A stretch of DNA of 64,000 nt from Iphione sp. A-MEVVRFRX5. Lineage: Eukaryota. The translations under genes were made by a program, and so were the position numbers. The stretch's first letter is position 1; each line of letters opens with the position of its first letter. The notes below the pieces were generated by a model. The model did no database searches. It was not told the origin of the DNA and was given only the letters and a program-made list of their open reading frames with translations. This document shows positions 5,250 through 57,289 of this stretch, one piece after another. The stretch spans positions 70,122,001-70,186,000 of the forward strand of contig OZ320317.1 of the NCBI GenBank assembly GCA_976226885.1, read 5' to 3'.

Positions 5250-5376
5250 AGAGAGAGAGAGAGAAAGGGATATGACTTCAAGCCCAGACCCCCTCCACAA
5301 TCACTTTGCGACCATATTCAGAATTACGACCATTTTGGGCCGACCCAAGTGATGGTCGCAAAGCGAGTTTCTCCTG
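5250..5376. mobile_element. Isolated right end of the Tc1/mariner-type MITE family seen intact at 56250-56984
   Basis: Near-identical to ~56861-56984, ending GGTCGCAAAGCGAGTTTCTCCTG|TA; no matching left end seen. Confidence 0.7.
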
Positions 5377-6236
5377 TAGTCCACTTTTGCTACGAGGAGC
5401 ACCTCTAGGATTAAACGCAATTTGGTCCCTCTTGCAGTCTGGTCTTCTTTGTGGTCTCTTCCTACATACAGATGCCTCTTCCTACATATTTTAGTTTTAC
5501 TAAAATCCTCCCTCCCCTTTGTCATCTGGTCTCTAAGTGAGTGTCAACTCTGTGCGTGCGGCTTGGTTTCACCTCTATTGTCAGAACTCTTATCAGAGGC
5601 ACATCATTCCGGCAGTTTTCAGAATTTCAACTAAAAACCTCTGGGCATGAATTCTAGAGAAATTCCCAAATTTGTTATAAAGGTTTCATTATCAAATGAA
5701 TCTTTAAATGAGGTATAACTGCAAAGAGGTAATAATGAGGGGAATAGACGGCTCCAGATATGCAGGAAACAAGATTTCTTATAGAACGGGTTTAACTAGT
5801 CGAAGTAAATTAAATGGACGTGCAAATATAACTTAAGTAGCCAAGAAGACAACGCGCTACATGTTGGTCAAGTTTTAATTCTTTTTACAGCAACAGATTT
5901 ACACCATCTACTTTCATAAATCCCTTTATACCGATGTACATAAACATGGTTCCCTTCGTGATGTAATTCGTGTATTGTAGTACAAAATATGTATCAATAA
6001 TGTTACAAGAGTCTATTACACTGAATATACTTCCAGATTTAAGAATGATTACACCTTGCCAACAAAATATATTCAAAAGTAACCTTTAGGAGTGAATATT
6101 CTCACAATTTTATGTTTTTACAGTGTTGATTTTGTTATAAAATCACAAAGACGAGTGCACTATCTTGCGCAAACCACACACATCCATGAATGAAGTGCTC
6201 AACAAAATTTGAGTCTAACTTCCATCTTCATCTCAT

Positions 6237-9200
6237 TTACTTGACGAGAAAACTGAAAAAGAAAAGGATTGAGTCATACACAAAGTTTCTACTTTTTTAG
6301 AGGTAGCAGTGCTGATACAGTGGTTGAATTTTAAAGCAAGCTTGTGTATTCCTACACCCCTCTGTTCAGCCAAGCAGAACCGAGGGTTGTAAACTTGCAG
6401 GAGGGATCAAAGTACAAGATACTATTTTACAACCCTTATAGTACACCTATGGTGTGTACATGTATCTACTCGATTTATACATGAATCATACTGATTTACT
6501 AGTTCGTGGAAATTACCATAGGAATCACTTATAATTACTTTATATGGTCTAATTTTTCCTATGCATGTAGCAGAAAGTAGCGACCTTATAATGGAAGAGA
6601 TTTAAAGAGCGTACGATGAGATACTGGGTAATGTTTACTAACAATCTTTCAATTTTATTGAATGCTCGCTTAAAATCGCACCCACCTGTATGGATAACCT
6701 TGGTATTTTGCTCTGAATACTGAGAGCAACAGACTGAAGAACAGGGCCACCGACACCAAACCAGTGATCACCACAACTAAAAAAAGTAATTTCCATATTT
6801 CATTTACAACACATACACTGAACATATGCTAATATAAACACAAAATTAAAAGAATCTTGCCAGTGCTACTGAACGGCAGTGTTGTGGCATCCGAAGTGGT
6901 CAGCCTGGTTTCACATTTAATTTTTGTGTTTTTTTTACACTGCCACCTATTCATTATTAAGTGACAGGCAGTACTACGTAGGTCTACATTTTGTTTGTGT
7001 ATGTGTGTATTAAATGTCATGAATCTTTGTCAGTGTCCTATGTGAGCTCGCAAAGGCGTTCAAACAATTATGAAAGGTTTTATCAAAGTGCAAAGCCCTC
7101 TGATACCATATTTTATTTTTGATATTATTATTAATAATTATCATTATAATGATCATCATAGTACCAGCATTACAATAAAACAAAACCCATCTTTAAATTC
7201 CATACTGACCCATTTTTTATATCGTTAACTGGGATTTTGCTTTGTCTCCTTTATATTATGTTAACAATACAATAACCCCCCCCCAACCTTCCCCATGTAA
7301 TTAAGTCTCACTCTCTAATAAGAAAGGGCCATGTAGTATTTCATTTGGTTTTTTTATCACTTAGAATCCCCTTGTCTTATCAATGTTGCACGATTTTCAC
7401 AAGACAGACGTCAGCAGGTTTATTATGAACACTTACTTCGCTTCTTGCTGGCATCTCCTTTAATATTGTTTGCTTCGTTCAGCAAAATCATCCCGACAAC
7501 AACAGCAACATCTGGTATCTCGAGTTAAGGAAGTTCATGCAATTGCTTTCATTCCAACAGTAACAGATTAAAACAAAGAAATTTTTGCAGGTGTTTCATC
7601 TCAAGAAAATGTATTCATTATTCTACTATTTTCTGGTTGATTAACATTAACAGTTTTCCCAGCAGAGATGTACTGCAGGTTCCATAAGAGACAGATGAAC
7701 GTGGGGGAAGAGAAAGAGAGAGCAAAACGTAGAGCCCTCCTCCTTCATACACATACATACAGATGCAGGTGATGCCAGAGAGGACAGCAAAGGCTTGCTG
7801 TCTTACGTTATGTCATTTGATGTGCAGTGTATAATGTGCACGGATTCAGTGAGGGGGTAGTATGCAAAACCCCATCACCTCCACCTATACACATGCTTGT
7901 GCATACAGCAGTTAGCAATGGTTCCCAGTTTAACACCAAATCATTTGGTGTGCACTGTACTGTACCCAATGTCAGTGTGCACTGTGTATAAATACTATGT
8001 GTGCCTCAAGCTATTAAGTGTGAATGTGTAAACATGTCCTACATCATATAATTCTGTATTATGTATACTGTGCGTGTCTGACAGTGCATCAATTAGTGCA
8101 CACTGTTTATATGCTTTGTGCATGAAACTGTGTCAGTCAGTATGCACCATGTATACTCTATGTGCCTGACATTGTGCCATTTAGTAGGCACTGTGTATAC
8201 TTTTTATACCTAACAATGTGTCAGCAAGTGTACACTGTGTGTGCTCATTGTACCTGATACTGTATCAATCATGTACAGTAGGACGTCCCATATGCGGACA
8301 CCCTTGGTTCTGTCCCAAACTGTCCGGATTTCAGATGTGTCCTGATTATAGATCACTTAGCAGTAAATGAGATGTGTATACATTATTATTATTAAATTTG
8401 AAGAATAAGGGTCCTAAAAGTACTAAATTTGATGATCAAGAGTCCTAAAAGTACTGAATTTGATGAATAAGTGTCCAAAAAGGACTGAATTTGATGATAA
8501 AGAGTCCTAAAATTACTGAATTTGAAAAGTAAAAATCCAAAAAGTACTGAATTTGATGAGTAGAAGTCCTAAAATTACTGAATTTAATGATTAAGAATCC
8601 AAAAAGTACTGAATACAGTGGGGTCTGTGAAAATGACTACTGAGGTCTCTCTGCTGCCTCTGGAGCCTCCCTTCACATGACAACACCTCGTCCACAGGGT
8701 TTATTCATAACTACCTTTGAAAATGACTTCTGGAGCCTCTCTGGAGCTCCAAATTCACGCAACAACACCTTGCTCACAGGGTTTATTCATAACTACCTCT
8801 GGAAATGACTTCTGAAGATTCTCTGCAGTCCCAAATTTGCCCAACAAACAGTGTCCATAGGCAGAAGTTTTGTAAAATTAGCTGTTCTTATTGTAGACAT
8901 CTGTGTGTAATGCTTAAGTATAGAAAACATATTGGTTCTTTTTTAAATCGTCCGCATTTGAGATGCATCTGCATCCCAGAAGTGTCTGTGAGGGGACATT
9001 GCACTGTATATGTGTCATACATCACGTCTTACATCTATCGGAGTATGAAGTATGACCCTCTGCCTACCTATCTATTGAACTCCTCCCCCCTTTCAAACCA
9101 CTAATCCACCAATCAGCTTGGGTTAGAGTGTCAAGTGTCCATGAGGTCTGCATGGGGGGGGGAATGTATTACTGTCCCCTACACTTGTCACCCTGCCCCT

Positions 9201-17856: not shown

Positions 17857-18367
17857 CTTCCTCCATATGGCTAACAACAGCTGAAACGTCGCACGTTATG
17901 ATTGGCTAGTCAACAACCTCGACCCTGGTAGTCGCACACAGAGTGTCGGACCCCAGCTTTGACACCAGAGGGCATCTCAATCTGCATGATGATGAAGTGC
18001 TTCACGGCACTGAAGTGCGTTTTCACTCCTTGACTCGAAATGCAGGTCTTAAATCTGACGTTAACATTTGTAGAAGAAGTTCCTCTGGCTTTAGGATCAC
18101 GGCTTAGCTTGAACGTGTAACACAGTACTGTTAGTTAAAAGACGATGCATGAAAATGGGTACTGTACTGTCTATGTAAAGTGTTTATATATAAGTAGTAA
18201 TAATGGCCTTTTAACTAAGAAGCAATTGAAAATTTGTCATTGGTGTACGTGACCCTATGCAGTTGTAAACGTATCCATTCCTTATCTTAGTGATGAGGTG
18301 ACAATTAGGATTAATGTGCAGAAGTCGTTAATGTTATGGAGAATATCTAGTTCCTGGTTAAAGATAC

Positions 18368-18844
18368 TGTAGTTTCTACTTGGGTTCAATAAAGAACTGA
18401 CAACTCTGAGTCCTGATTCAAAACTGTCTTTATTCAGGTTCCCTCTCATATTTATATCTTTTCTCCAATCCAGGCACTAGCCAATCATCTGTCAGTAACA
18501 GAGTAAGAAAATACATTGTTACCTTCTTTAACAGCCCTTTCAACTAACCCACCAACCAGGAGAGAGCAAAGTATCACTTTTGGGGCTGTGGGACCACAGC
18601 CGAGTGCTGCCGATCCAATCACAAGAGAGCTTTGAGACTCCAGGGTAGTTTGTTTTAAATCCAGGGGTGGCTGTGGTACCACAGCGACCCTTAGTGCATG
18701 TGCACCGAGTCCAGTACTCCTGCACTTACTTCGTTTGACCAGTGCACCCCGACTGTGGCACCACACACTTCTGCGCACAGGGCGTGCGCCCGTGCCTCCA
18801 CCTGTGGCACCACAGCTCGCGGCCGGCTCCTGTATACCACTACA
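18368..18844 (-). repeat. 3' LTR
   Basis: Differs from 27877-28353 at 6 of 477 positions by manual comparison; minus-strand TATAAAT (~18450) and AATAAA (18434-18429); four TGTGG-N2-CCACA palindromes. Confidence 0.97.
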
Positions 18845-18857
18845 CTCTCCCCTCTTT
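18845..18857 (-). other. Polypurine tract
   Basis: AAAGAGGGGAGAG directly abuts the 3' LTR on the minus strand. Confidence 0.9.
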
Positions 18858-19082
18858 AAATTACACCCACCCCTGAGGGGTGGGGCGAAGCATCACACCC
18901 TAGAAGATCAATGTAGGAACAGCAATTCTAACTCAATCTCCCAACACTATAGCCACTAGGTAGCTTCCTTAATTTTAGCACCAATGAAATTTCTCTCGCC
19001 ATCATTACTTAACACCTGCTAAAATTTTACAATGCATCTAATCCCAAACGTATCCAAGTGTCCCTGAGCATGCAGTCTTATA

Positions 19083-19312
19083 GGCTTGAACTACGGCTTA
19101 CGGCCGTGGTAGTTCAGTAACACAGTCATATCAAATGAACTAAGGCTTACGGCCATGATAGTTCAGTGCAATAGTCATATCAGATGTGGAGGTATGTAGT
19201 CCTCTGAATGTGAAGTAAGGCTTACGGCCGTGGCAGTTCAGTGAAACAGTCATATCAAGTATGGGGGCTTAAGGCCGCAAAAGTTCAACCAACCAATCAT
19301 ATAAAAAAAACA
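19083..19312. repeat. Four degenerate ~50-70-bp direct repeats in the element's 3' untranslated region
   Basis: GGCTTA(C/A)GGCCRYRRYAGTTCA...A(G/A)TCATAT at ~19095, 19144, 19218 and 19266. Confidence 0.75.
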
Positions 19313-19535
19313 CTATCATACTTTGAATTCAACAACGGAGAAGCCCGTGTTGGGCAAAACTTGACCTCTACGTAAACTCTGAATCTTGCCTCACTCTCTC
19401 GGAGGAAAGTTTGATCATCGGGATGATATCAGTCTCACGTGGAGTTTGAGGCCCGAGCAACGACACCAACTCAAATAAAAAAACATTCTTTAACCGCTCG
19501 GGCCCCTACTCACCACCCTGTGGAGGTCGGCTGTT

Positions 19536-20605
19536 CTACTCCTCCGTCCACATCACATCAGTGTTGGTGCGAAGCTGCTGAGGGGGGCGGGCCTCCAGAA
19601 GGTCCCACACAGTGGGATCCTCCGCTCGTTGTTGGGCCCGCGCCGCCTGCGCCTCCCGCTCCCAGGTGTCGAAGGCCTCGCGCCTCGAGGCTGCCGTCGT
19701 CGCGTAGGTCGGACGCGGGTCTTCGAGGAGGTTGGTCGCGGCTTCGATGGAGCGGTTGTGCCAGCGGGTGACACGTTCGCGGTCGCCCCACTCGAGCCGG
19801 TCAGGGATCCGCATCCCTTCCAATGCGAGGACCGGCCGCCTGACCAGGGGGTCGATGAGGTGCTGCGGCGATGCCTCCGACTCCGCCAGGGCCAGAACCC
19901 ACGCCAAGGAGGAACTGGCGATGAAGCGCGAGGTGGGGCTCATCTCCATCCAGCGGGGAGGGGGCCATTCCAGCCGCTGGGGAAGACGTACCATAGTGGG
20001 AACCATGACGGCTCGCCGTACCGCCGGGTAGGGTGGCACTCGGCCGTCCAGAATCTCCCGGACTCGACGGGACAGCGGGCCGAGCATGGGCGTGGTGAGC
20101 TCCCGTTCTGCCAGTCGTTGAAGGTGTCCTGGTGGGAGGGCTGCCTCCCGGGGCCGATCGCTTGACGGATGAGGGTGTCCGGAGGCCTCCCAAGCCGTCA
20201 GGGTGTCGAGGAGGGCGGCCGGACTCCAGTCAGGGGTCGGGAGGGATGGCCCCCCCCGCAGTAGACTAGTGACTGACGCGGGCGTCCCTGGAGTGGCGCT
20301 GCTGCTTCGCGGTAGGCGGGAGCCGTCAATCCCCTCTCCACGACCCATGGATGGCGCCGCCGCAAGTGGGCGAGCCAGGTGCCCGGCTCGCCTAGGACGC
20401 TGGGACAGAAGAGGCAGTCCATCTGTCGGTGTCGACAGCCCCCATGCTGCTCCTTCTGATGGCGCTCCAAGGACTCCCCCGCCCAGTACACCCGGTGGGG
20501 TGTGCAGAGCTCGCACCAAGCCGTACCAGGGGGCAGGGGCTCTCCTTCCTCCACCTGGGGTGCCGGGGGATGTGCCACTTTCTGCCGGGGCATGCCGCTT
20601 GCCAT
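19536..20605 (-). CDS. Retrotransposon accessory protein: two C2H2-type zinc fingers plus an unknown C-terminal domain, ~356 aa if the G8 run at 20250-20257 is read as G9
   Basis: From the ATG at 20605: CELC-x14-HQKEQH and CLFC-x12-HLRRRH. The overlapping 382-aa frame becomes protein-like from GPSLPTPDWSPAALL onward. One extra G at the run joins the two frames. Confidence 0.65.
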
Positions 20606-20630
20606 AGAGAGGGACGGCCAGGCAGGGTGG

Positions 20631-21463
20631 TTGTGGAACCACAAGCTCGTTGACAGTACCGGTTAGGTCAAGACGTGGGGCCACAGACTACAACACACAG
20701 AGATGAACAGTCAATGGCAGATAATCACTGTGGTACCACGGACAACAAGCTGGCTGCCTTGGGGTGGTCACTCAGCCGCCCTTACCTATCGTCGGAGATG
20801 GAGGTGCGAGGTGCGGCCACAGCCCGGTGATGGCGACTGCTGCTCCTCGCCCAGTCACTTGATCCTTCCGCAGCGTCTGCCCGAAACCGTGGTCTGTGGT
20901 TCCACGCTCACGATCGGCCTCCTGTTTCTCAATGCCCCGTCGGATGTGTCCACACAGAAAGACTTATTTTTGGCACTGTCCCCCGGTGTCCCCACTGTTC
21001 TTCTCAGCCTCTTCTCTCCCTCACGTGGCCAGCTGTGGTGCCACGGGCCGCCATTGATCACGTCTCGCGAGACCACGGGTTCTCTCGCGCCCCGCGAGAT
21101 CCCGTGTCCCGCGTCCGTATCTCATCTGTGGGCCCGCAGCGAAACTGCTTACTCTACGACTGCTGAAGGTTCATTCTTTTTGTACTATAGGGGACTGGTA
21201 GGGATAGGACAAAACTGTGCTACACCACTCTATTTCCCTTCCTTCGGCTGTGGCACCACAGGCACTTTCGCTGCGTTCTCCCTCCAGAGGGCGACACCTC
21301 CTCCCCGCCTGTGGTTCCACAGCCCGTTCACCTGATACATTGTATCAGTTATTTCCCCCGATCCCACCAATCTCCCGTTATGTTGGATCTCTGTGGCACC
21401 ACAGTATGAGTGGTTACCCTCCCAGCCAATCGCTCGAACGCCAATGATATCTGTGGCACCACA
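20631..21463. promoter_or_regulatory. Cluster of ~10 TGTGG-N2-CCACA palindromes between the divergent accessory genes
   Basis: Copies at ~20631, 20674, 20728, 20894, 21033, 21126, 21248, 21309, 21391 and 21451; the half-sites are conserved and the 2-nt spacer varies. Confidence 0.75.
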
Positions 21464-21560
21464 TACACGATCTTCGCTGCCCGCCGTAGCCAATCATCTT
21501 GGCTCACTGCGCTCCCCCCAAATATAAATGAGATGGGCTACGGCCAGCCTGCTTCATCTG
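21424..21560 (+). promoter_or_regulatory. Putative internal antisense Pol II promoter
   Basis: Three CCAAT boxes (~21426, 21441, 21490), TATAAAT at 21523-21529, and an Inr-like TCA ~30 nt downstream. Confidence 0.6.
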
Positions 21561-21760
21561 GACTCTTGCTGCACCCCACCAGGCTTCTCTATCCTTCCAG
21601 CTACCCCTTCCAGCTACCCCAGTTCTACAGGTATCCATCTTATGTAGGAATGGCAACTGTTTAACATCTTTGAACTAGCTGAACCAGAGACAAATCATTT
21701 TTTTTTTTTTTTTTTTTTTTTTTTTCACGGGTTTCTCCCTTTTTCAGCCTAAACCCAGCC

Positions 21761-22630
21761 ATGACCAATCAAGGGACCGCGTTTGGGCACCTTCCTGCTA
21801 CCGCTCTTCGGCCTTATCGCCTGTGAGTGTTTGGATAACTCTTCCTCTACTTCCATTCGTTCTAAGTGTTATCCAACATCGCCCCTTCCTGGAGTTTAGT
21901 GTCAGCCAGACCCATCTTCATTTTTCCTGCCTATTTTCTCTTCCACAGGCTCCGCTATCGACCCACCCTGCCCGGGTCAACTCCCTCTGGCGTGAACATT
22001 CATACAGAAGGGCCGGTGGTACGAGTTTCCGGCACCCATGAGATCATAGATGCCCCCTTCATCTTGCCCGTTCCGGGTCGTCTGATCTTCCTGGGACCGC
22101 TTCACATGATTGACCTGGTGGTACGCCCCATCGCCCCTCCTGGCTCGGCGCGGCCCCCGCCAACGATGCCCGCCCCATCAGACTGGGCTGCTTGCTACAC
22201 CACCCCGCTGCCCCCACCGGCTTCTCCCTCCTCCAGTGCTTCCGGGTATAGCACCGACAGCCCCTCATCCCTTACCAGCAGTCGTCTGGACCCCTGGGGA
22301 TCCCACCAGGACCTCTCCGCGATGGGCGCATCACCACCCCCGGCGGATGGATCGGGCCGCTCCTCTCCAAGCCCGCGGCCGTCACCCGCCCCGTCAGGAA
22401 AAGACTCTGTACTGCCTCCGTCTCTGGCCGTCATGAGGCCAGAATGCACTACCCCCGAGACAGGCGATGACATCTCCTGCGGCTCCTCACCCCTGGGGAC
22501 TTCCCCTCCGGGAGGTCATGTGCCCTTCTCGGCGATTTCGACTCCCGCCCTGGCAGCCTGGTATCGTCAGCTTCGTTGGGGCGACGCCCCCTTCTGCCCT
22601 ATTCTGGTATCTTCCTCCGATGAGGAATAG
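21761..22630 (+). CDS. Spliced antisense accessory gene of the Gypsy element, 247 aa, unknown function
   Basis: Kozak ccagccATG at 21761; donor CT|GTGAGT at 21823; acceptor ttttctcttccacag|G at 21948; both phase 2. The product runs MTNQGTAFGHLPATALRPYRLLRYRPTL...FCPILVSSSDEE*. AATAAA lies at 22697-22702, followed by a GT-rich tract. An upstream intron 21631-21747 contains a T28 tract. Confidence 0.65.
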
Positions 22631-23024
22631 GACTTTGAATGGCAATTATACTCCCCATGCTAAGTACTCTGTAGTTGCGTGGCCGACATACCTTGAAATA
22701 AATTTCAGCTAACTGATTTGTCCCTTGTGTTCGTTCTATGTTCTATTCGCTCTCAGACTTAACTATTCTCACCCCGCTCGTCATCCCGTAGCAGCGACCA
22801 GAGGACATAACCCGAGCAGGTTCTAATTCTTACACCCTGGTCCGGGTTGGCTCTACCCCTGATAGCGTGCCGGCTCACCCAGAGGACAAAGCCTGGTCAG
22901 ACCTCCGTCTCCTTCTGGCCCAGGCCGGCTCCACCGTCAGTTCCACCTTCATGGTCTGTCAACTTCTCAGCTACCACGGGCCTACACTGCGAGTGGCCGC
23001 AGTGCTGCCCTCCCTAACCGGGAG

Positions 23025-23372
23025 CCTCCCCCCCTTTTCTCCCCCTAGAACTTTTGGGTACCACACCCGGGGATGTCCAGCCTCCCCCTCTGGAGCTTTT
23101 GGGTCCCGCACCCGAGGATGTCCAGCCTCCCCCCCCTGGAGCTTTTGGGTCCCACACCCGAGGATGTCCAGCCTCCCCCCTCTGGAGCTTTTGGGTCCCA
23201 CACCCGGGGATGTCCAGCCTCCCCCTCTGGAGCTTTTGGGTCCCATACCCGAGGATGTCCAGCCTCCCCCCTCTGGAGCTTTTGGGTCCCACACCCGAGG
23301 ATGTCCAGCCTCCCCCTCTGGAGCTATTGGGTCCCGTACCCGGGGATGTCCAGCCTCCCCTCCCTGGAGCTC
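23025..23372. repeat. 45-46-bp GC-rich minisatellite, ~7.5 copies, just downstream of the pol stop
   Basis: GATGTCC anchor at 23072, 23117, 23163, 23209, 23254, 23300 and 23345; units differ mainly in C-run length. Confidence 0.93.
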
Positions 23373-23415
23373 TCTGCTCTCCCTAGTCCGACCTCCATTG
23401 GAAGACTTTTTCTTT

Positions 23416-26400
23416 TTACGAGCTCCCTTCCTTATTCGCGCGCCGCCACCAAGACGCGATCCAACGAGGTATCTCCCCACGATACAGTCGTAGGCGATTC
23501 CGGTGCACCACCTTGGGGCGAGCCCGGGCTGCCCGTTGGACCACCAATCGCTCTGGGTCCAGCACCTTGGTGACGAGCCATGGACCCGTCCAGGGCAAGT
23601 ATACTTTAGGGCTCTTCCCTCTGGGTGGTTGAGCTTCCTGTAACCACACCGCGTCCCCTTCCTGTAGGGGTTCCCCTTTTGCCTGGCGATCATATCCTCT
23701 AGCCTGCGTCCGTGCAGCCTTTACCAAGTGCTCCCGGACCGTCTGGTAAGCCCTCTTCAGCTGGCGTTGAAGGCGCTGTACCCACTCTGGCATAGTCACC
23801 TGTTCCTTCCCCTCCCACTCGCTAAGAGGGAGGCCATCCATCGCATGCGCTGGCAGGACCACCTCCCGACCGAACATCAGGAAGTTAGGTGTGAAGCCAG
23901 TACTGGCTTGGGGGGAAGCTCGGTACGCCATCATAAGCAGTGGGAGTGCTTCGTCCCAGTCGTCGTCGGTATCATGGCAGTGGGCTTTAATCATTTTCCC
24001 TAGCGTGCGAAAGCTCCTTTCGATAAATCCGTCCCCCTGGGGGTGCCTAGGGGTCGTCTTGGTTCGCTGGATTTGCAAGAACTCGCACAGAGCAGAAACA
24101 ACTTCGCTGCAGAAGTTGGTCCCTCTGTCGCTGTGGAGCTCCATGAAACATCCATACCGAGAGACCACCTCCTCCACTAGTACTTGTGCTATCCGGGTTG
24201 CCCTCTGATCAGGCAGTGGGAAGGCCTCTAGCCATTTAGTAAAGTGGTCCCCCACCATTAAGATATAACAGTTGCCCCGCTTGGTATGGGGGAACGGACT
24301 GGCCACGTCCATGGACCATCTCTCCATTGGCTCCCCGGACACATAAGTGCGCAGCGTTGTCTGTGGGCGGAAGGGGTTTACTGTGAGGAGGGCACAGTGG
24401 CATTTCGCACAGAAGTTTTGTATATCTTGTTGCATCCCAGGCCAGTAATATGCCAAAGACACCAAGAAGGTGGTACGGTCTATCCCTAAGTGGCTACCCA
24501 TCCGGCCTTGGTGGATTTCTTCGATAGCCTTGACTCGTCGCTGCGCAGGGAGTACCAGCTGCAAGCGTGTTCTTGAGGCTTCGAGCTCATGCCACCGCCG
24601 GTATAGCAGCCCCTCTTGGACCACCAGACGGTCCCACTGCTGCCATAGTTTCTTGGCCGCCCTTGACAAGGGAGAAATGTTTTCCCACTCTGGCCTACCA
24701 GACGTATCCTCCTTCAGCGTCAGGATAGGTCCAATATCTGGGTCATCCAGCTGCGCACCCCGAAGGGCGCGATCTGCCGCCCCCTGGGTGCGGCCTCGGG
24801 TGACGACTCGTACCTCCACCCCATGCTCTTGCTTGCACTGTTTACACGGCATTCGGGATAGAGCATCCGCATTACCATGTAGGCGCCCTGGTCGGTGCTG
24901 AAGGTGGAGGTGATATTGACCGATTCTCTCCAGCCATCGGGCTAACTGCCCCTCAGGGTCCCGAATACGGCTCAACCAGCTAACCGCCCCATTGTCCGTC
25001 CGCACCGTGACCTCCTGCCCGTATATAAAAAAATGAAAATGTTTCAAAGCAGCTACCACCGCCAGCAGCTCCCTCCGCATCACACAATACCTCCATTCCG
25101 GTGACGTGAGGCTGCGACTAAAGTATGCGAGGACTACCTCCTGGCCTTCCTGCTCTTGGGAAAGCACGGCTCCCAGCCCTACATTGCTGGCGTCTGTGTC
25201 CAAATAAAAACGTCCCTTAGGCATCGGGTAGCCCAGCACGGGACTGGCCTGCAATGCCCGTTTCAGGGCTTCGAAGGCCTCCTCTTCTTCGGGGCCCCAA
25301 TAAAACCGGGTCCGAGGGCTAGTCAGCCGGTGTAGGGGTGCTGCTAGATCGGCGAAATGAGCCACCAGACGGCGGTAGTAGGAACAAAGTCCGAGAAAGG
25401 CTCTTATGTCAGTAGTGGAAGTCGGCTTCGGCCATTCCTGGATACACTGCACCTTCCCGGGATCTGCCGAAATCCCCCGATAGGACACCCGATGCCCCAG
25501 GAAGGGAACCTCCTCAAGGAACAAACGGCATTTAGCCAGTTTCAATTTTAAACCAGCAGCCTCAATTCGAGAGAGCACCCGATCCAACCGAGCTAGCGTC
25601 TCCCCAAAATCCCGCCCGAATACCAATACGTCGTCCAGATAGACTAGACATTGCTCCCAGGTCAGTCCCCTGAGTACCGTGTCCATTAAGCGCTCAAACG
25701 TAGCGGGAGCGTTGACCAACCCAAACGGCATCACCGTAAACTCGTACAACCCCGAGGATGTGGTGAAGGCCGTCTTTTCCTGGTCCCGCGGATCCATCTT
25801 AACCTGCCAATAGCCCGATGCTAAGTCTAACGAACAAAAGTACCGAGCTCCCGCCAGTGCGCTTAACGAATCATCAACTCTGGGTAGGGGATACGCATCA
25901 ACCTTCGTCTGTTGGTTTAGTTTCCGGTAATCGACACAGAAACGAGTAGTCCCATCCTTCTTGCGTACCATGACTACGGGACTTGCCCAGGGGCTCTGGC
26001 TCTCGACAATGACCCCGGCCTCTGCCATTTCCCTTACTAGTTGCTGTTCTTCCTGTCTTTTTGACAGGGGCAGGCGCCGAGGTTGCTGTTTAATGGGACC
26101 TGACTCCCCCGTGCAAATACGATGTTGCACCACGTCCGTACAACCCAAATCACCTTTGTGTTGTGTAAAGGCCCCCCTGTGCCGTTCTAACACCACCCGC
26201 AGCTCTCCCTGTTCCCCTCCAGTGAGGTGAACTGTCTTAGTGGCCATCAACTCATCTATCACGGTCCCTGCCCCCACCTTTGTGGTAGCCACTTTCAGGG
26301 GGTGATCTTGAGGGCAGTCAGTAACCTCCTCCCTCTGCACTGGCGAGCCAAGGGCTAGAGACGTCCCCTGTTGGATCAACAGTTCCCTCTCCCCAGTGTT

Positions 26401-27006
26401 CCACACGGGCAGCACCTGGCTTACAATGCAGCGCACTCCTACCACCCCTTGTAATAACTGACCCTCCTCTAAGCCCTCTACCAAGAATGGGCCCTCTCCA
26501 CTGGGAGACACTGGGACCCCCACCCCTTCCCCAGGGGGAACCGTAATATCGGAGGCTGCCCTCAGTACCTTAACTCCTCTGGTCTGTTCCTTCCCCCTAG
26601 GGGTCCCTCCAAACAAAACCTCCCCCTGTGACAAGTCAATGACAGTGCCATGCTGGGTCAAGAAATCTGCCCCCAATATCCCATCCCCTTCTATCTCTGC
26701 TAACAGGAAGTGGTGTTTGAATTCTTTTCCAGCAATCCCTACTTGAACTTCCTCTCTCCCTACCGTTGGCAGGATATGGCCCCCTACCCCCATAACCTTC
26801 ACAGCAGCCCTCTTAACAACTGGGCCAGGGACCACACAGGGATTCATAATGGAAACTTCAGCACCCGTATCAATAAGCAGTAGGAGTGTCCTCCCACCAC
26901 AGCTTACCTTGAGATGTGGTCCCTGGCCGTATTCCATTATCACCTCCTGGTGGACAGATGCAGTCGGTGTCCCCTGGCCTACTGAGCCGACTGCTGTGTG
27001 TTTTCC
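23416..27006 (-). CDS. pol: Pol polyprotein (protease, reverse transcriptase, RNase H, integrase), probably expressed by -1 frameshift from gag
   Basis: The 1175-aa ORF 23416-26943 contains LLIDTGA (PR), FCVDYRKLN and YLDD (RT), LDTDAS (RNase H), H...H...CAKC plus SMDV/HSDRG/IERS (integrase) and WTGPW (GPY/F). The frame is open up to 27012. Confidence 0.97.
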   Translation of the reverse strand, partial: GKHTAVGSVGQGTPTASVHQEVIMEYGQGPHLKVSCGGRTLLLLIDTGAEVSIMNPCVVPGPVVKRAAVKVMGVGGHILPTVGREEVQVGIAGKEFKHHFLLAEIEGDGILGADFLTQHGTVIDLSQGEVLFGGTPRGKEQTRGVKVLRAASDITVPPGEGVGVPVSPSGEGPFLVEGLEEGQLLQGVVGVRCIVSQVLPVWNTGERELLIQQGTSLALGSPVQREEVTDCPQDHPLKVATTKVGAGTVIDELMATKTVHLTGGEQGELRVVLERHRGAFTQHKGDLGCTDVVQHRICTGESGPIKQQPRRLPLSKRQEEQQLVREMAEAGVIVESQSPWASPVVMVRKKDGTTRFCVDYRKLNQQTKVDAYPLPRVDDSLSALAGARYFCSLDLASGYWQVKMDPRDQEKTAFTTSSGLYEFTVMPFGLVNAPATFERLMDTVLRGLTWEQCLVYLDDVLVFGRDFGETLARLDRVLSRIEAAGLKLKLAKCRLFLEEVPFLGHRVSYRGISADPGKVQCIQEWPKPTSTTDIRAFLGLCSYYRRLVAHFADLAAPLHRLTSPRTRFYWGPEEEEAFEALKRALQASPVLGYPMPKGRFYLDTDASNVGLGAVLSQEQEGQEVVLAYFSRSLTSPEWRYCVMRRELLAVVAALKHFHFFIYGQEVTVRTDNGAVSWLSRIRDPEGQLARWLERIGQYHLHLQHRPGRLHGNADALSRMPCKQCKQEHGVEVRVVTRGRTQGAADRALRGAQLDDPDIGPILTLKEDTSGRPEWENISPLSRAAKKLWQQWDRLVVQEGLLYRRWHELEASRTRLQLVLPAQRRVKAIEEIHQGRMGSHLGIDRTTFLVSLAYYWPGMQQDIQNFCAKCHCALLTVNPFRPQTTLRTYVSGEPMERWSMDVASPFPHTKRGNCYILMVGDHFTKWLEAFPLPDQRATRIAQVLVEEVVSRYGCFMELHSDRGTNFCSEVVSALCEFLQIQRTKTTPRHPQGDGFIERSFRTLGKMIKAHCHDTDDDWDEALPLLMMAYRASPQASTGFTPNFLMFGREVVLPAHAMDGLPLSEWEGKEQVTMPEWVQRLQRQLKRAYQTVREHLVKAARTQARGYDRQAKGEPLQEGDAVWLQEAQPPRGKSPKVYLPWTGPWLVTKVLDPERLVVQRAARARPKVVHRNRLRLYRGEIPRWIASWWRRANKEGSS

Positions 27007-27845
27007 GACGGTTTAGGCCCTGTAGCGTTCGATGCTTGCTGTGGGGCTTTCGGGCAATCTCTCTTCCAGTGACCCGGTTGCTTGCAGATGAAACACAAAT
27101 TGTCCCTGGGCCGAGACCTCTGAGGTCGCAGTTCCTCCCGTAGTTTGGCAAACTCCTGCATTAGGACTTCCACCATGTCCTTGGGTGCTGGGCTGTTAGA
27201 ATCCTTGTTGCCACTTGCTTGTATGGCATTCACTCTCCTCGCGGGGAACCGCTCCTGGATCTCCACTACCTGTAGTGCAGCCTCCATGGTCTTGCATTGG
27301 GCTTCTAAACATTTCAAATGCAGGTCGTCCGGGAGTGCCCGTTGGAAGGCCGACACTGCTGCTAATTCTCGTGTTTCCGCACTCACATCGGGGTACGCGG
27401 TGCGTACAAGTCGTCGGACTTTGTCAGCAAACCCCTTAGCATCCTCCCCTTTCTGCCTGCAGATCGTGGACAGGTCTTGCATAGCCGTCACTCGATTGCG
27501 TCGACGCCCAAACCGCTTCTCCAAGGCAGCTACCCTGGACTCAAAGTCGGCCTTGTCCTCCGATGGGAGGTCTCCAAAGTACATTTGGGCGGTGCCAGTC
27601 AACGACAGAGCCAGTGCTGAAGCTCTTGTGTTCGGACTCCACTTGCATGCATCTGCCCATTCGACAAACTGGACAATCCAGCTGTCCCAGTCGACTACGC
27701 TGCCATCGAATCGCTTGGGCTTCATGGCGTTGGTGCGTAGTGGCTCCTCTGGGGCTAACACATAAGGTTCAGCTTCCTCTTCATCATCCGCATCCGGTAC
27801 GCGCAACTGTACCTCGTCATCAACTGCCACAAACTTAGTAGCCAT
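26979..27845 (-). CDS. gag: Gag, 288 aa, with a CCHC zinc knuckle
   Basis: KPKRFDGSVVDWDSWIVQF capsid-like start; CFICKQPGHWKRDC knuckle; ATG just after the PBS. Confidence 0.95.
   Translation of the reverse strand: MATKFVAVDDEVQLRVPDADDEEEAEPYVLAPEEPLRTNAMKPKRFDGSVVDWDSWIVQFVEWADACKWSPNTRASALALSLTGTAQMYFGDLPSEDKADFESRVAALEKRFGRRRNRVTAMQDLSTICRQKGEDAKGFADKVRRLVRTAYPDVSAETRELAAVSAFQRALPDDLHLKCLEAQCKTMEAALQVVEIQERFPARRVNAIQASGNKDSNSPAPKDMVEVLMQEFAKLREELRPQRSRPRDNLCFICKQPGHWKRDCPKAPQQASNATGPKPSENTQQSAQ
27000..27006 (-). other. Candidate -1 ribosomal frameshift site G_GAA_AAC
   Basis: In the gag frame (TCG GAA AAC), inside the gag/pol overlap; pol is in the -1 frame. Confidence 0.6.
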
Positions 27846-27857
27846 GATGTACAGTGG

Positions 27858-27875
27858 ATCCCACTTCTGACACCA
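27858..27875 (-). other. Primer-binding site complementary to the tRNA-Leu 3' end
   Basis: TGGTGTCAGAAGTGGGAT, 1 nt from the 5' LTR; complementary to ...ATCCCACTTCTGACACCA of tRNA-Leu(CAA/CAG type). Confidence 0.88.
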
Positions 27876-27876
27876 G

Positions 27877-28353
27877 TGTAGTTTCTACTTGGGTTCAATA
27901 AAGAACTGACAACTCTGAGTCCTGATTCAAAACTGTCTTTATTCAGGTTCCCTCTCATATTTATATCTTTTCTCCAATCCAGGCACTAGCCAATCATCTG
28001 TCAGTAACAGAGTAAGAAAATACATTGTTACCTTCTTTAACAGCCCTTTCAACTAACCCACCAACCAGGAGAGAGCAAAGTATCACTTTTTGGGCTGTGG
28101 GACCACAGCCGAGTGCTGCCGATCCAATCACAAGAGAGCTTTGAGACTCCAGGGTAGTTTGTTTTAAATCCAGGGGTGGCTGTGGTACCACAGTGACCCT
28201 TAGTGCATGTGCACCGAGTCCAGTACTCTTGCACTTACTTCGTTTGACCAGTGCACCCCGACTGTGGCACCACACACTTCTGCGCACAGGGCGTGCGCCC
28301 GTGCCTCCACCTGTGGCACCACAGCTCACGGCCAGCTCCTGCATACCACTACA
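27877..28353 (-). repeat. 5' LTR
   Basis: 477 bp, TG...CA, followed by the TSD ATAC. Confidence 0.97.
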
Positions 28354-28858
28354 ATACAATGAAATGAAATGAAACATTCGATCCTACCCCTGGACGGAAC
28401 TAACACAATGGGCAGTTAATCTTATATTGTCTGAAGGACATCCATTGAGATACACAATGAGTTTTGCATACCTTTGATAGCGTGTTTACATCACTAACGT
28501 ATATAAGTAAGGAGTTGCATGTCCCTAGTGGGACTCGCTTGTAAACAACTGGGAAATCTGTCCTGTGCTCTGCAATAAAGGCCTGACGAGAAGAACCTAT
28601 GTGTGGTGTATTTATTGTTACAAATGACTTCGGAGGGATGTGGCACAAAAATAGTCCCCCCACTGGTGCTGAACTTTGTTCCTCAAAACCTACCGGTAGT
28701 GTTTCTTGGACTCATAGTTATACCATATTGTCTTTTTTTTTCACCCAAATCTTATAGTCTCTTACTTCATGATGAGGCCAGCCACAGACTAGACAGTCCC
28801 CTAGATAATGCTGATAATACTCATTTTTTCCAAGGCAGTTATCCCAGATATCCAGAGT

Positions 28859-52688: not shown

Positions 52689-55584
52689 TACTACATTATG
52701 ATGCACTCATAATGTAACGCCTTCTGTAGGAAATTATCAAAATTATTATTTAGGCCCAATGTATTAAGAACAATGCCGATAGAATCCAATCAAGTAATGA
52801 ACTTTTGTGACTTGTGCATTCCAGCTGAACCCAAAACAACCCCGGCCAAAGGTCTCGGTACGAGCGTGTTTGTAACAGGTTAACTCTATTTTCCGTTATT
52901 TATCAAAGCAATTATTCACATCCAGTATAATTTACCAGTTGTTCTGGATGATTCTGCCGCTGAATGGTCATAACGTCAATTGGCCGCAAGCATTCTCGAT
53001 ACGTGGGCAGGAATGCTATTGAATAAGAAAACAAATACATGTATACCAAAATAGCGATCATATCAATTTAGAACCGGGCGGTTTTAACTTGATCTGTAAA
53101 GGATGTAGCAATTAATGCTCACAAAGGGATAGGCGTGACTTTTGCCCTTACAAGAGCACGGCTCCCAGGGTCCCACGTGAGGGAAATAAGATCAATAAAT
53201 AATCTATCGTGCTATATTTGCCCCTCGGGTGTGATGAAGGAACTGCTCAGCCAATTTCAACAATGCATGACTACAGGCACATTTGTAAACCAATGCCACG
53301 CGTCCTCCTCTTCATATGTGGGAAAGTGAAACATCAATGCTTCCGAAAATATCGTTTCTTGTAGTACCTTTTCATTTAAATTTTCATTCTTTTCAGGTCC
53401 CTCTATCAAGTTTAGTTTTTTTTTCATTAACAAAGGATCTATCGAGATGATATACATGTATTATGCAAAAGTATTACATGTATGGGCAACTTTGAACATT
53501 TAAAATCATGCATAAAGAGCGGTCCTTTGAATGCTAACCCGTCTTTGACGTGTGTGAGGAAAGAATGTGTTGGTCTATAGCGATGGGTACAGAATAAGGG
53601 AGGACTTTACAAACAAGCAGGAGAGCCATTTAGATTTACGAGAAACAAGACCCCATAATAGTTAATGTATATTTATCACACGTACGCAACTTCCCATCGC
53701 ACACTCTATCTTCACTGTCCTATCACTGTCAACTTTCCTTTTCTGGGATACCATCCTCACAATGCTAAGCCTAGGTTTCTAGGTTTTCACTTGCTATTCT
53801 AAGGACAGCATTTTCACAGCATTGCCAACATGCAGTCTACTCAACAAAAGGATAATCACCTCTATTATAGTTAAATAAAAAATCGGCTAAAGCGTGGTGT
53901 GAATGGGTTGACTTTTACAGTTCCACCCTAATTTTCTACTATAACATATCATTCTTCACATTTTCTGAACTTCTTTTGCTAAATTCTGTTGTCCTTGGGT
54001 ATAATCCACCAGAGAAAGCATGGTTATCCGATTTTCAAATCTGCATCGATCCCTGAGTAGCTGAGAAGAACCACTGAAGGTTATCCCAGTCCCAAGGGTG
54101 CATAGTTTCCATTCTCACGTAAGACTAATTTACATGTATACGGAGGTGTCGTTAAGTTCTCTACCACTTTTTCGAATTTTTTTACGTCTGGTAACAAACT
54201 CTAACTTTGTGACACTTTCTATAATTTATATGCGGCTTTGTTGCACAAATACTCTACAGGAAATGTTCTACAAAAAATGTCATTGCAGATGCAAGGTTTT
54301 TAATAACATTGCGTGAGAGTTAGCAGTATAGAAATAAGATAATGCAAGTTTAAAATCAATGAAAATGTCGGAGACGAATGGTAGTCAGGACCTGTTGCTA
54401 TTTGCCTGGGCACTGCATTAACTTTTCATCAGATATTGACCGAGTAAGTCGAGGAAGGAGCGGGGGCCTCTATGGATCTCGACTTACCTTGCATTCCCTA
54501 CCGCTCAGTTGACTGCACTCTCACGATACTCCACACCTATGTGGATTGGAAGCATTTGCTTGTTTTATAGAGCAAGTAATAGGCCAGAGACCCAACCGTT
54601 CCCCATCAAAACACAAGCTGGTAAGTGACTACTCTACGTATATTGGCTAATATTGTCATATATTGTTGGGTTTTGAGAGCTGCCTATATTTAATACAAGT
54701 CCACATGGAAGCTTCTTTTTAACATTGCGTTATTCTGTCATCTCTCTGGAGATCGTGGGTTTTTATTCTTTGGAATGAAGGTTTCTCGTACCGTAACGTT
54801 TTGCTATCAGTGGTTGACAAATCAGAGAAACCATGTTCAGATTTACAAAGTGTTTTTTTTTTCAGTATTACTTTTATCAGTAATCATGAATATCATTCCT
54901 CTCTGACGAGAAAGACGACTTCATTATTTTCACTGTTACATTCTCAATGCTCTGTCTACTAAAACTAACACTAAACCTGCCCCAGAATCCGTCTGGAAAC
55001 TTAAATACATGTATAACACTGGCAGGCTCATCCGAAACACTACTAAACAAAAGCAGAGTTACACCAGAGGTGGGCCAAGGATTGTGACGGTTGAGAGCGC
55101 TATGGTTTACAATTCTGAGTGAAACCAGAATGTGAAGACATTACACCCGGGGGAAGAAAGAGGGCTGGTTTTGGAGATAGGAGCCGCTCCGCTCAAGGAC
55201 AGATACCAAACTGCAAATTTATATCCATAATAGACATATACGATGCACTGATAATCAGAGGCCTTGAAATCTTAGCCAATGGTGACTAACTTTTTCAGGT
55301 TAAAATGAAGGTGCCAAAAATGGGGTATATCACAATAGAAAAGATGGAAAGGGACAAATAAATGCATCGTTACAAAAGTCATGCTAACCTTGGTGCCTCT
55401 GAAGAAGTATATAATTCGGAATAGTCGTAAAGCATGCATGGTCACCCGTCTACATTGCTCTTTGTGTCTATGTCTGAGGCCCAGTTTCCGTGTGTCCGGA
55501 TATTTTCCTGGACACATGCATGCGTGTGTCTAGAAAAAAAAAACGATTCTATGAGAATAAGGGTCGATTTCTTCACATGTATTA

Positions 55585-57169
55585 CAGACACTGCTCATTT
55601 TTGGCCTCTGGACACAGGCCACAGAGTACAGAGTACACCAATACTCCCTTACACTTCTGTGTAAGAGTGGTTTCCTTACCTGCGTTTTTCCTTGTGCATT
55701 AATTTTGTATGTATTTTGTGTGCATTTTTATTGAACCAGTGATAACTATTGTAAGGTGCCAGTTGTATCCATGTGCATTTACCTGCATTTACCCTCCATT
55801 GACTATTAATTCACAGATAGGGTTGTTTATTGATAGTGCGTTTTTGCTGCATGGACATCACTGGTAAAAAGTATCAAAACTGGCAAATGTCACTGGATAA
55901 AGTATAAAAACTGGTGAATGTTACTGGAAAAAGTATTAAAAACTGGCAAATGTCACTGCAAAAATATAAAAACTGGTGAATGACACTGGAAAATCAATGT
56001 CACTGGAAAAAGTATAAAAATAACTGGTGAATGTCACTGGAAAAAAGTACAAAAACTGGTGAATGTCACTGGAAAAAGTACAAAATATAAAAACTTGCAA
56101 ATGCCAGAGGAAAAAATGAGTAAATGTGAGGCAGAACACCTGCTGTAAAGAGTATATCCTATATACTGATGTCTGTTGCTGTCCATGTGTGGTAAATTAT
56201 CAGTCAGGGAGCATTAATAGTCAATAGAAGGTAAAGGCAGGTAAACATACAGGAGAAACTCGCTTTGCGACCTCCTCACTTTGCGACCAAATCGACTATT
56301 GCGACCATTTTGGGTCGGAACGGAAGCAATCTTAGTACATTTACCATATGATTACATATCACTTTGTGACCATATTGCTTTGCGACCAAATTCACCCTGC
56401 GACCACACCTGCTAGGGTCGTTTTCAATATAATTTACTATCACTTTGCGACCATCACCCTGGAGGGATGTTGAGGCGTCAACTTTGACGACTTTGATGGT
56501 CTCTCACCCTAGAGGGGTTGGCCGGGGTGGTCGCGGGCGTCAACTGCGACGTCTCTGATGTTCTCTCACCCTGGAGAGGGTCTGTCGGTAGCGGTCGGTG
56601 GTGTCGGGGGTGTCAGTGGGTATGTCTTTGATGGTCTCTCACCCTGGAGGGTCAGCCTGGAGTGGTCGCAGGGTGTCGGGGAGGACGTCTCTGATGGTCT
56701 CTCACCTCTTTGGGTCACTTTTAGTCATCAAATTCAGCACTTTTTGGACTTAAAGTCATCAAATTCAGCACTTTTTGGACTTTTAGTCATCAAATTCAGC
56801 ACTTTTTGGACCTAAAGTCATCAAATTCAGCACTTTTTGGACGTTTCATATGTTAATAAAGAGAGAGGGAGAAAGGGATATGATTTCAAGCCCAGACCCC
56901 CTCCAAAATCACTTTGCAACCATATTCGCTATTACGACCATTTTGGGCCGGCCCAAGTGCTGGTCGCAAAGCGAGTTTTTCCTGTACATGGATACAACTA
57001 GCACCTTACAATAGTTATCACTGGTTCAGTGAAAAATCCACACAAAAATGCATACAAATACACACGGAAATCCAATGCAAGTAAGAAATACCAGCTTTAC
57101 ACAGGGGTGTAAGGGAGTATTTGCGTGCTCTGTGCACTGTGTCCAGAGGCCACAAATGAGCAGTGTCCA
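55585..57169. mobile_element. Foldback-like element with >200-bp inverted arms and a central ~30-bp minisatellite, interrupted by a MITE
   Basis: 55587-55815 is the reverse complement of 56205-56249 joined to 56985-57167; CACTGGAAAAAGTATAAAAACTGGTGAATGT repeats at 55855-56105. Confidence 0.75.
56250..56984. mobile_element. Tc1/mariner-type MITE (TA TSD) carrying a 31-bp minisatellite
   Basis: TA|CAGGAGAAACTCGCTTTGCGACC...GGTCGCAAAGCGAGTTTTTCCTG|TA; many internal TTGCGACC sub-repeats; four 31-bp units at 56719-56842. Confidence 0.88.
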
Positions 57170-57289
57170 TAAACTTCTCTGGACTCTAGTCTCTGGAGGG
57201 TAACACAGATCAGTAGGATAGAGAATAGGTTATTAAAGAAGAAATAACACCCTCTAACATATGTTACTTCATCTTAAGTTATCTAATTT

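Follow-up and report, generated by a model that had tools for sequence, protein, structure and literature searches.

A gene for a protein with two C2H2 zinc fingers (ORF3) lies 3′ of pol in a Ty3/Gypsy retrotransposon of Iphione sp., and post-pol C2H2 genes of this kind apparently make up a recurring and undescribed type of Gypsy accessory gene. In the copy described here, contained in a 64,000-nucleotide stretch of contig OZ320317.1 (the window), the gene is divided between two reading frames, and we consider it likely that this is one gene of about 355 codons, broken at or near an 8-G run by a private slip or an assembly error. The break itself is probably trivial, and the gene class and the regulatory layout around it are the main point. 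A C2H2 gene in at least nine Gypsy lineages, together with a candidate site in two promoters, offers a test of whether retrotransposons encode transcriptional regulators of their own.

Results

A young and intact Ty3/Gypsy element

The element is young and intact, and has the full set of Ty3/Gypsy hallmarks: TG...CA LTRs, a target-site duplication (TSD), a primer binding site (PBS), a polypurine tract (PPT), a gag with a CCHC knuckle and the pol domain order PR-RT-RH-IN. Its two LTRs of 477 bp each differ at 6 positions, with no gap.

18368-28353, minus strand: complete Ty3/Gypsy LTR retrotransposon, with LTRs, TSD, PBS, PPT, gag and pol domains
27877..28353, minus strand: 5′ LTR, 477 bp, TG...CA, with four palindrome copies, TATA and AATAAA
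18368..18844, minus strand: 3′ LTR, the pair of the 5′ LTR
18364-18367 and 28354-28357: target-site duplication ATAC, flanking both LTRs
27858..27875, minus strand: primer binding site, presumably of the tRNA-Leu type
18845..18857, minus strand: polypurine tract
26979..27845, minus strand: gag, intact, one CCHC knuckle
23416..27012, minus strand: pol (PR-RT-RH-IN), intact, in frame -1 with respect to gag
23041..23405: 45/46-nt tandem repeat behind pol

The overlap of gag and pol contains G_GAA_AAC, and a -1 shift appears to be in use there. In the tandem repeat behind pol the length of a G run differs from unit to unit. The nearest pol relative overall is a family of 777 members (P0003), 55% identical and sister to the pol of the element on an integrase tree; the nearest named pol relatives are from animals. 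Between ORF3 and the 3′ LTR, three repeats of 49-75 nt (19070-19479) are followed on the plus strand by CCAAT (19293), TATAAA (19300) and AATAAA (19474), so placed that a short antisense transcript without a clear ORF is possible. An Rfam search of these repeats gave no match, and fold z-scores were -0.2 for the repeat unit and -1.9 for the repeats together.

ORF3 is encoded in two frames

ORF3 is read from the minus strand. A reading made earlier from the sequence alone (the sequence-only reading) had placed it in the env position. It does not follow pol directly but lies 2.8 kb downstream, and a predicted antisense gene and a promoter-like region stand in between. The other landmarks named there are present: the ATG at 20605, the 8-G run at 20250-20257, an acceptor ending at 20688, and the finger motifs CELC..HQKEQH and CLFC..HLRRRH in a frame that is open across 20198-20662. 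The long frame, given there as 382 aa, is likewise open (19536-20687) and measures 383 aa from stop to stop.

20258..20605, minus strand: N-terminal part of ORF3, 116 codons, beginning at the first AUG after the 20688 acceptor
20515-20444, minus strand: finger 1, CX2CX14HX4H
20416-20351, minus strand: finger 2, CX2CX12HX4H
20198..20605, minus strand: finger-only product of 135 aa, according to the sequence as assembled
20250..20257, minus strand: 8-G run, the likely site of the frame break (phase switch interval 20217-20332)
19536..20249, minus strand: C-terminal part of ORF3, 237 codons, with a low-confidence prediction of helices and no homologue in the searches made

The classical C2H2 ligand pattern (CX2-4C...HX3-5H) occurs twice, and a tandem C2H2 pair arose by chance in none of 2000 shuffles. 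The two fingers are joined by a linker of 9 residues, which is non-canonical when compared with the TGEKP type. Atlas features assigned the N half to C2H2 (0.95) with C2H2 proteins as neighbours, while the Pfam family zf-C2H2_4 matched the fingers at E 0.019 only, below the cut-off.

Both halves of ORF3 are coding. Codon phase was scored with a 3-periodic Markov model trained on the gag and pol of the element itself, and the observed margin was matched in 2 of 300 shuffles of the finger half and in none of 300 of the C half, which is in the -1 frame relative to the fingers. From the AUG the model favoured the finger frame as far as about 20280 and then the long frame up to its stop, with a gain of 23 log units over the long frame alone. 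The 95% interval of the change point (20217-20332) includes the 8-G run, covers about 11% of the length of the gene and contains its longest G/C run. In control runs the procedure placed the gag/pol junction correctly when that junction was left out of training, found the split in a relative with a divided ORF3 (L082, below) and gave no gain on two contiguous ORF3s. Position-wise GC was 0.73/0.57/0.77 in the C half vs 0.73/0.56/0.74 in the finger half. An open long frame over the finger region is no surprise, since it also occurred in 915 and 1390 of 5000 resamples.

The highest 19-residue hydropathy values of the two frames were 0.65 and 1.05, and a Pfam search of ORF3 returned no env family. 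Neither half has a membrane segment, and ORF3 is therefore not an env gene, in agreement with the sequence-only reading. A strong donor-like site (rank 4 of 214) lies at 19513 on the minus strand, 23 nt past the ORF3 stop codon.

Homologues of the two halves

Search by profile and structure was recommended in the earlier reading for both halves. The N half is C2H2-like, and the C half had no homologue by word search, Atlas, five genomes, phmmer over 1.84 billion proteins or fold search. Its sole phmmer match, P0001, was rejected as a bacterial-type fibronectin-repeat protein whose score was summed over repeats. For the finger half the search gave no longer relative, and three matches to viral contigs were short or weak. 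Single-sequence folds were poor (pLDDT 47 and 43), and fold searches gave nothing at E <=0.001 and only weak C2H2 matches. An Rfam search gave 0 matches, and among 74 metagenome loci neither half was matched and no finger pair was present.

Most finger-bearing Gypsy relatives carry fingers and tail in one frame

The sister pol led to relatives: Gypsy elements on contigs that had been binned with prokaryotes and that are taken to be eukaryotic contamination. Several have a sense C2H2 ORF immediately behind integrase, and a search of the five bins concerned added more. Two such bins, G001 and G002 (L075-L083, L098-L124), hold many retrotransposon contigs of eukaryote type (G002 has 118 integrase-family matches), a sign that host DNA has contaminated them. 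An integrase followed by a sense C2H2 ORF was found on 15 contigs, nine in G002 and six in G001. A profile of the fingers gave 18 matches, 12 of them to post-integrase ORFs; the 6 other finger proteins were set aside. Three loci (L104, L105 and L123) end too early to judge, and 12 are informative. Fingers and a tail of more than 50 residues past them are in one frame at 11 of the 12 informative loci and in eight of nine lineages (L075, L078-L081, L098, L102, L106, L107, L119 and L124, with one or two C2H2 fingers each); 3 of these 11 run off contig ends, and breaks further on are possible in them.

The tails of the relatives are RS-rich, acidic or low in complexity. A C-terminal domain of about 75 aa (LGAPSTY...) is common to L102:233-460 and L106:1760-1989, and L078-L082 and L098 share another unnamed domain, of about 100 aa; neither belongs to a Pfam family. 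In 7 of the 9 relatives examined, the AUG has an acceptor-like AG no more than 8 nt away. The window ORF3 resembles the group in being a sense finger ORF 3′ of integrase and behind a predicted acceptor, but its distance from pol is 2.8 kb vs 28-344 nt in the nine relatives measured.

The exception among the informative loci is L082 (L082:9204-9654), where the finger peptide ends two codons after the last His and the conserved C domain continues in the +1 frame. This split is opposite in direction to that in the window, has no homopolymer and is known from a single copy; the gag, pol and LTRs of this element look young and intact. Some Gypsy relatives, L077 for example, have no finger gene. In two others, ORFs of 714 and 609 aa follow pol and are env-like by eye (L085:13676 and L087:5188).

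On the profile of the relatives the window fingers scored 20.5 bits, a score reached by 0 of 1000 ligand-fixed shuffles, while unrelated C2H2 proteins scored 20-28 bits. An hhalign comparison gave a probability of 60%, to be read in the light of unrelated fingers scoring equally high on the profile. The profile itself matches DNA-binding finger proteins in the PDB. The C half did not match the tails of the relatives, and the finger-bearing elements fall into three separate groups on a poorly resolved integrase tree. The link between the window ORF3 and these relatives is thus one of position and architecture, which falls short of demonstrating common descent.

Palindromes and a predicted antisense gene upstream of ORF3

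20632..21463: promoter-like region, with 10 copies of TGTGGNNCCACA (5 exact, 5 one-mismatch) and four CCAAT boxes
20688..20785, minus strand: predicted 98-nt leader intron of the finger gene, its donor ranked 1 of 214 and its acceptor 6 of 327
21523..22702, plus strand: predicted antisense gene, 247 aa, Pro/Ser-rich, with TATA, splice sites and AATAAA; no Pfam family

In exact form the 12-bp palindrome TGTGGNNCCACA is confined to the element, which holds all 13 exact copies of the window, four in each LTR and five at 20632-21463, where 0.15 would be expected. No comparable palindrome arrays were seen in the relatives examined. TGTGGT, which we take to be a RUNX site, is contained in 16 of 18 palindromes, and a host factor may bind them.

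Splice sites of the finger gene were ranked along the minus strand 3′ of pol with a generic matrix. The strong, top-ranked donor precedes the 20688 acceptor by 98 nt, an arrangement that points to a short intron in the leader and to a start within the element. The predicted antisense gene begins with a TATA at 21523 and a weak donor at 21631, followed by a T28 tract and acceptor (exon from 21748) and an ATG at 21761; a further intron occupies 21823-21948, the stop is at 22630 and AATAAA stands at 22697, 67 nt past the stop. Its two short introns have acceptors ranked 1 and 3 of 239 and splice in phase. In the last exon, codon phase was significant only over the first 70 codons (20 of 1000 shuffles; 407 of 1000 for the whole exon). 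The predicted protein has a short beta-like N-terminal part and no match among the loci retrieved from relatives. From this arrangement we infer a spliced antisense gene at 21523..22702, and 20632-21463 would be a bidirectional internal promoter between two divergent accessory genes.

Discussion

The frame break

The normal ORF3 would be a single frame with two N-terminal C2H2 fingers and then a lineage-specific C-terminal region, and one broken gene is the simplest reading because the relatives hold fingers and tail in one frame. The proposal in the sequence-only reading that the two halves form one frame is accordingly the most likely one, given the phase switch at the run and the fused relatives. 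Since the C half matches no tail of a relative, it is architecture and not a full-length homologue that supports a single gene. The break would be due to a slip confined to this copy or its sub-lineage, or to an error of assembly; of the three origins offered earlier these two fit best and are on a par, and the third, a programmed switch, is unlikely. The 8-G run is the longest homopolymer among five coding stretches checked, and long-read assemblies are prone to err at homopolymers. Such runs are also described as hot spots for frameshifts by reverse transcriptase (PMC3185545, in the text available). A trans-acting gene may moreover be carried broken in a copy with intact gag and pol.

The gene may instead be two overlapping genes without any break, which we hold to be improbable: the acceptor at 20688 would give the 135-aa finger protein and a second acceptor, at 20399, a 270-aa protein in the long frame. 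The sequence-only reading did not name this fourth option, nor the strong donor above the 20688 acceptor, the palindrome common to the LTRs and the internal region, or the antisense gene.

20348..20418, minus strand: candidate second acceptor (exon from 20399), with the next AUG at 20348, long frame, 270 aa, of the overlapping-gene model

This acceptor has the best score of the 327 on the minus strand 3′ of pol and arose in only 96 of 3000 synonymous resamples, and the first AUG after it (20348) is in the long frame, earlier AUGs being skipped. Its pyrimidine tract, however, consists of finger 2 codons, and in the stretch 20350-20258 the finger frame is favoured, short of significance (134 of 1000 shuffles). 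In L082 a second AUG lies 4 nt after the first in the frame of the C domain, but 2438 of 3000 resamples had that frame open by chance, and fusion at 11 of the 12 informative loci speaks against overlapping genes. The C half could also be foreign to the finger gene, as a chance open frame in DNA of 68% GC or a captured unrelated fragment; this we regard as very improbable. Such an origin agrees with the failure of every search run to find a homologue, and an open frame of this length occurred in 84 of 2000 shuffles, but the codon-phase margin of the C half was matched in none of 300, in position-wise GC it is level with the finger half, and its coding signal begins where the finger signal ends.

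Recoding at the G run, by a -1 ribosomal shift or by polymerase slippage, would set the ratio of finger-only to full-length product, as the sequence-only reading had proposed with its programmed switch; we judge it unlikely. The gag/pol of the same element shows an apparent -1 shift, and L082, a second young element, is split in the same inter-domain region. Yet the split in L082 runs in the opposite direction without a homopolymer, so no shift signal is conserved in distant relatives. The 8-G run is no typical -1 site either: in the heptamer of such sites, X_XXY_YYZ, YYY is A or U. An all-G run is absent from the shift-prone heptamers listed for mammalian ribosomes in the available part of one account, although the same text describes very low-level compensatory frameshifting at G runs in herpes thymidine kinase (PMC5009743). 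The sequence 3′ of the run had no stable fold (z -0.5, -0.8), a comparison of little power given that the gag/pol control was equally not significant (z -1.1, -0.6). The thymidine-kinase mutants of herpes simplex resemble the window gene in a G-run indel with possible low-level translational rescue, but are accidental mutations, not a programmed switch (PMC5009743). By analogy a low-level leak at the window G run is possible.

Two other splicing routes were considered. An intron bridging the frames was rejected, as its 76 in-frame pairs of sites had all six donors below 0 and a best pair sum of -4.5 bits; a splice from the gag leader into the long frame found no support, with a donor of 0.3 bits and no phase signal in the 81 nt above the AUG (149 of 300 shuffles).

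A putative regulator of the element

If the gene is one broken gene, its product is probably a nuclear, trans-acting regulator of the element. ORF3 would be expressed from a spliced subgenomic mRNA, and its promoter in the window element is probably internal and common to the divergent antisense gene. What the regulator does can be answered only tentatively. It might be a DNA-binding regulator acting at the palindromes of the LTR and internal promoter: a protein with two fingers might recognise a half-site of 6 bp, and as a dimer the full palindrome of 12 bp, in the manner of a foamy-virus transactivator. The RUNX motif in most palindromes and the lack of such arrays in the relatives speak against this role. 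Other roles, such as integration targeting or anti-silencing, are when taken together an equally tentative prospect. Handling of unspliced genomic RNA in the manner of Rev or CERV is only slightly less likely than DNA binding, and is the role to which the RS-rich tails of the relatives and the splice sites in the genomic RNA point instead (compare the available text of PMC10309623). A more elaborate proposal, unlikely in its entirety, is that an undescribed C2H2 class is widespread in animal Gypsy elements and takes part here in a circuit like those of complex retroviruses, in which a finger dimer on the palindrome of the LTR and of a bidirectional internal promoter would control the genomic RNA, its own gene and the antisense gene; should splicing or recoding yield a finger-only form, that form would be a competing repressor.

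LTR retrotransposons are thought to borrow the transcription factors of their hosts, and C2H2 proteins are best known as host tools against transposons. Complex retroviruses are the model for element-encoded transcriptional regulators, and finger genes borne by Gypsy elements suggest a route by which such genes may move between elements and hosts.

Comparison with known systems

The foamy virus transactivator Tas reportedly binds both promoters of its virus, and to our knowledge it is not a C2H2 protein. As far as the available account goes, foamy virus shares with the window element accessory genes on the 3′ side of pol, an internal promoter in addition to the LTR and a possible feedback loop via a motif common to both promoters (PMC7828637); unlike foamy virus, the window element is a Gypsy element without env, and binding is putative. 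CERV, of the C. elegans Gypsy element Cer1, has in the text available a candidate C4 finger and first exons in the gag frame, whereas ORF3 has classical C2H2 fingers and its own AUG (PMC10309623).

Among plant elements, the antisense ORF of Grande is said to be transcribed from its own promoter. Like the window element, Retand, Grande and RIRE2 have a long pol-to-3′LTR region with tandem repeats and an antisense ORF, and a regulatory role has been proposed for their antisense and sense aORFs, in the parts of the accounts available (PMC11963269, PMC7264820). They differ in belonging to a plant lineage and in a TRP28 domain; the term zinc finger is absent from the accessible Retand text, and a divergent sense/antisense pair, as in the window element, was not met in these partial accounts (PMC11963269, PMC7264820). 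Oikopleura Tor elements (PMC4402516) and bdelloid elements (PMC5408684) have, as here, a separate third gene with an internal promoter or spliced message, but the products described in the available portions are Env, GDSL esterase, DEDDy exonuclease or TM/coiled-coil proteins where that of the window is C2H2, and neither zinc nor C2H2 occurs in the accessible text of the bdelloid paper (PMC5408684). A C2H2 ORF3 in Gypsy elements was not found in the openly licensed literature, as far as its texts were available; Repbase entries or supplements may already record such ORFs.

Other features of the window

A host gene on the plus strand (59092-62055) encodes in a single frame a TRP-channel-like protein of 987 aa with ankyrin repeats and an ion-transport domain. 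Nested inverted repeats at 55582-57172 surround tandem arrays of 31 bp and 62-73 bp and probably represent a non-autonomous DNA transposon, related pieces of which occur at 5252-5378 and 8364-8642.
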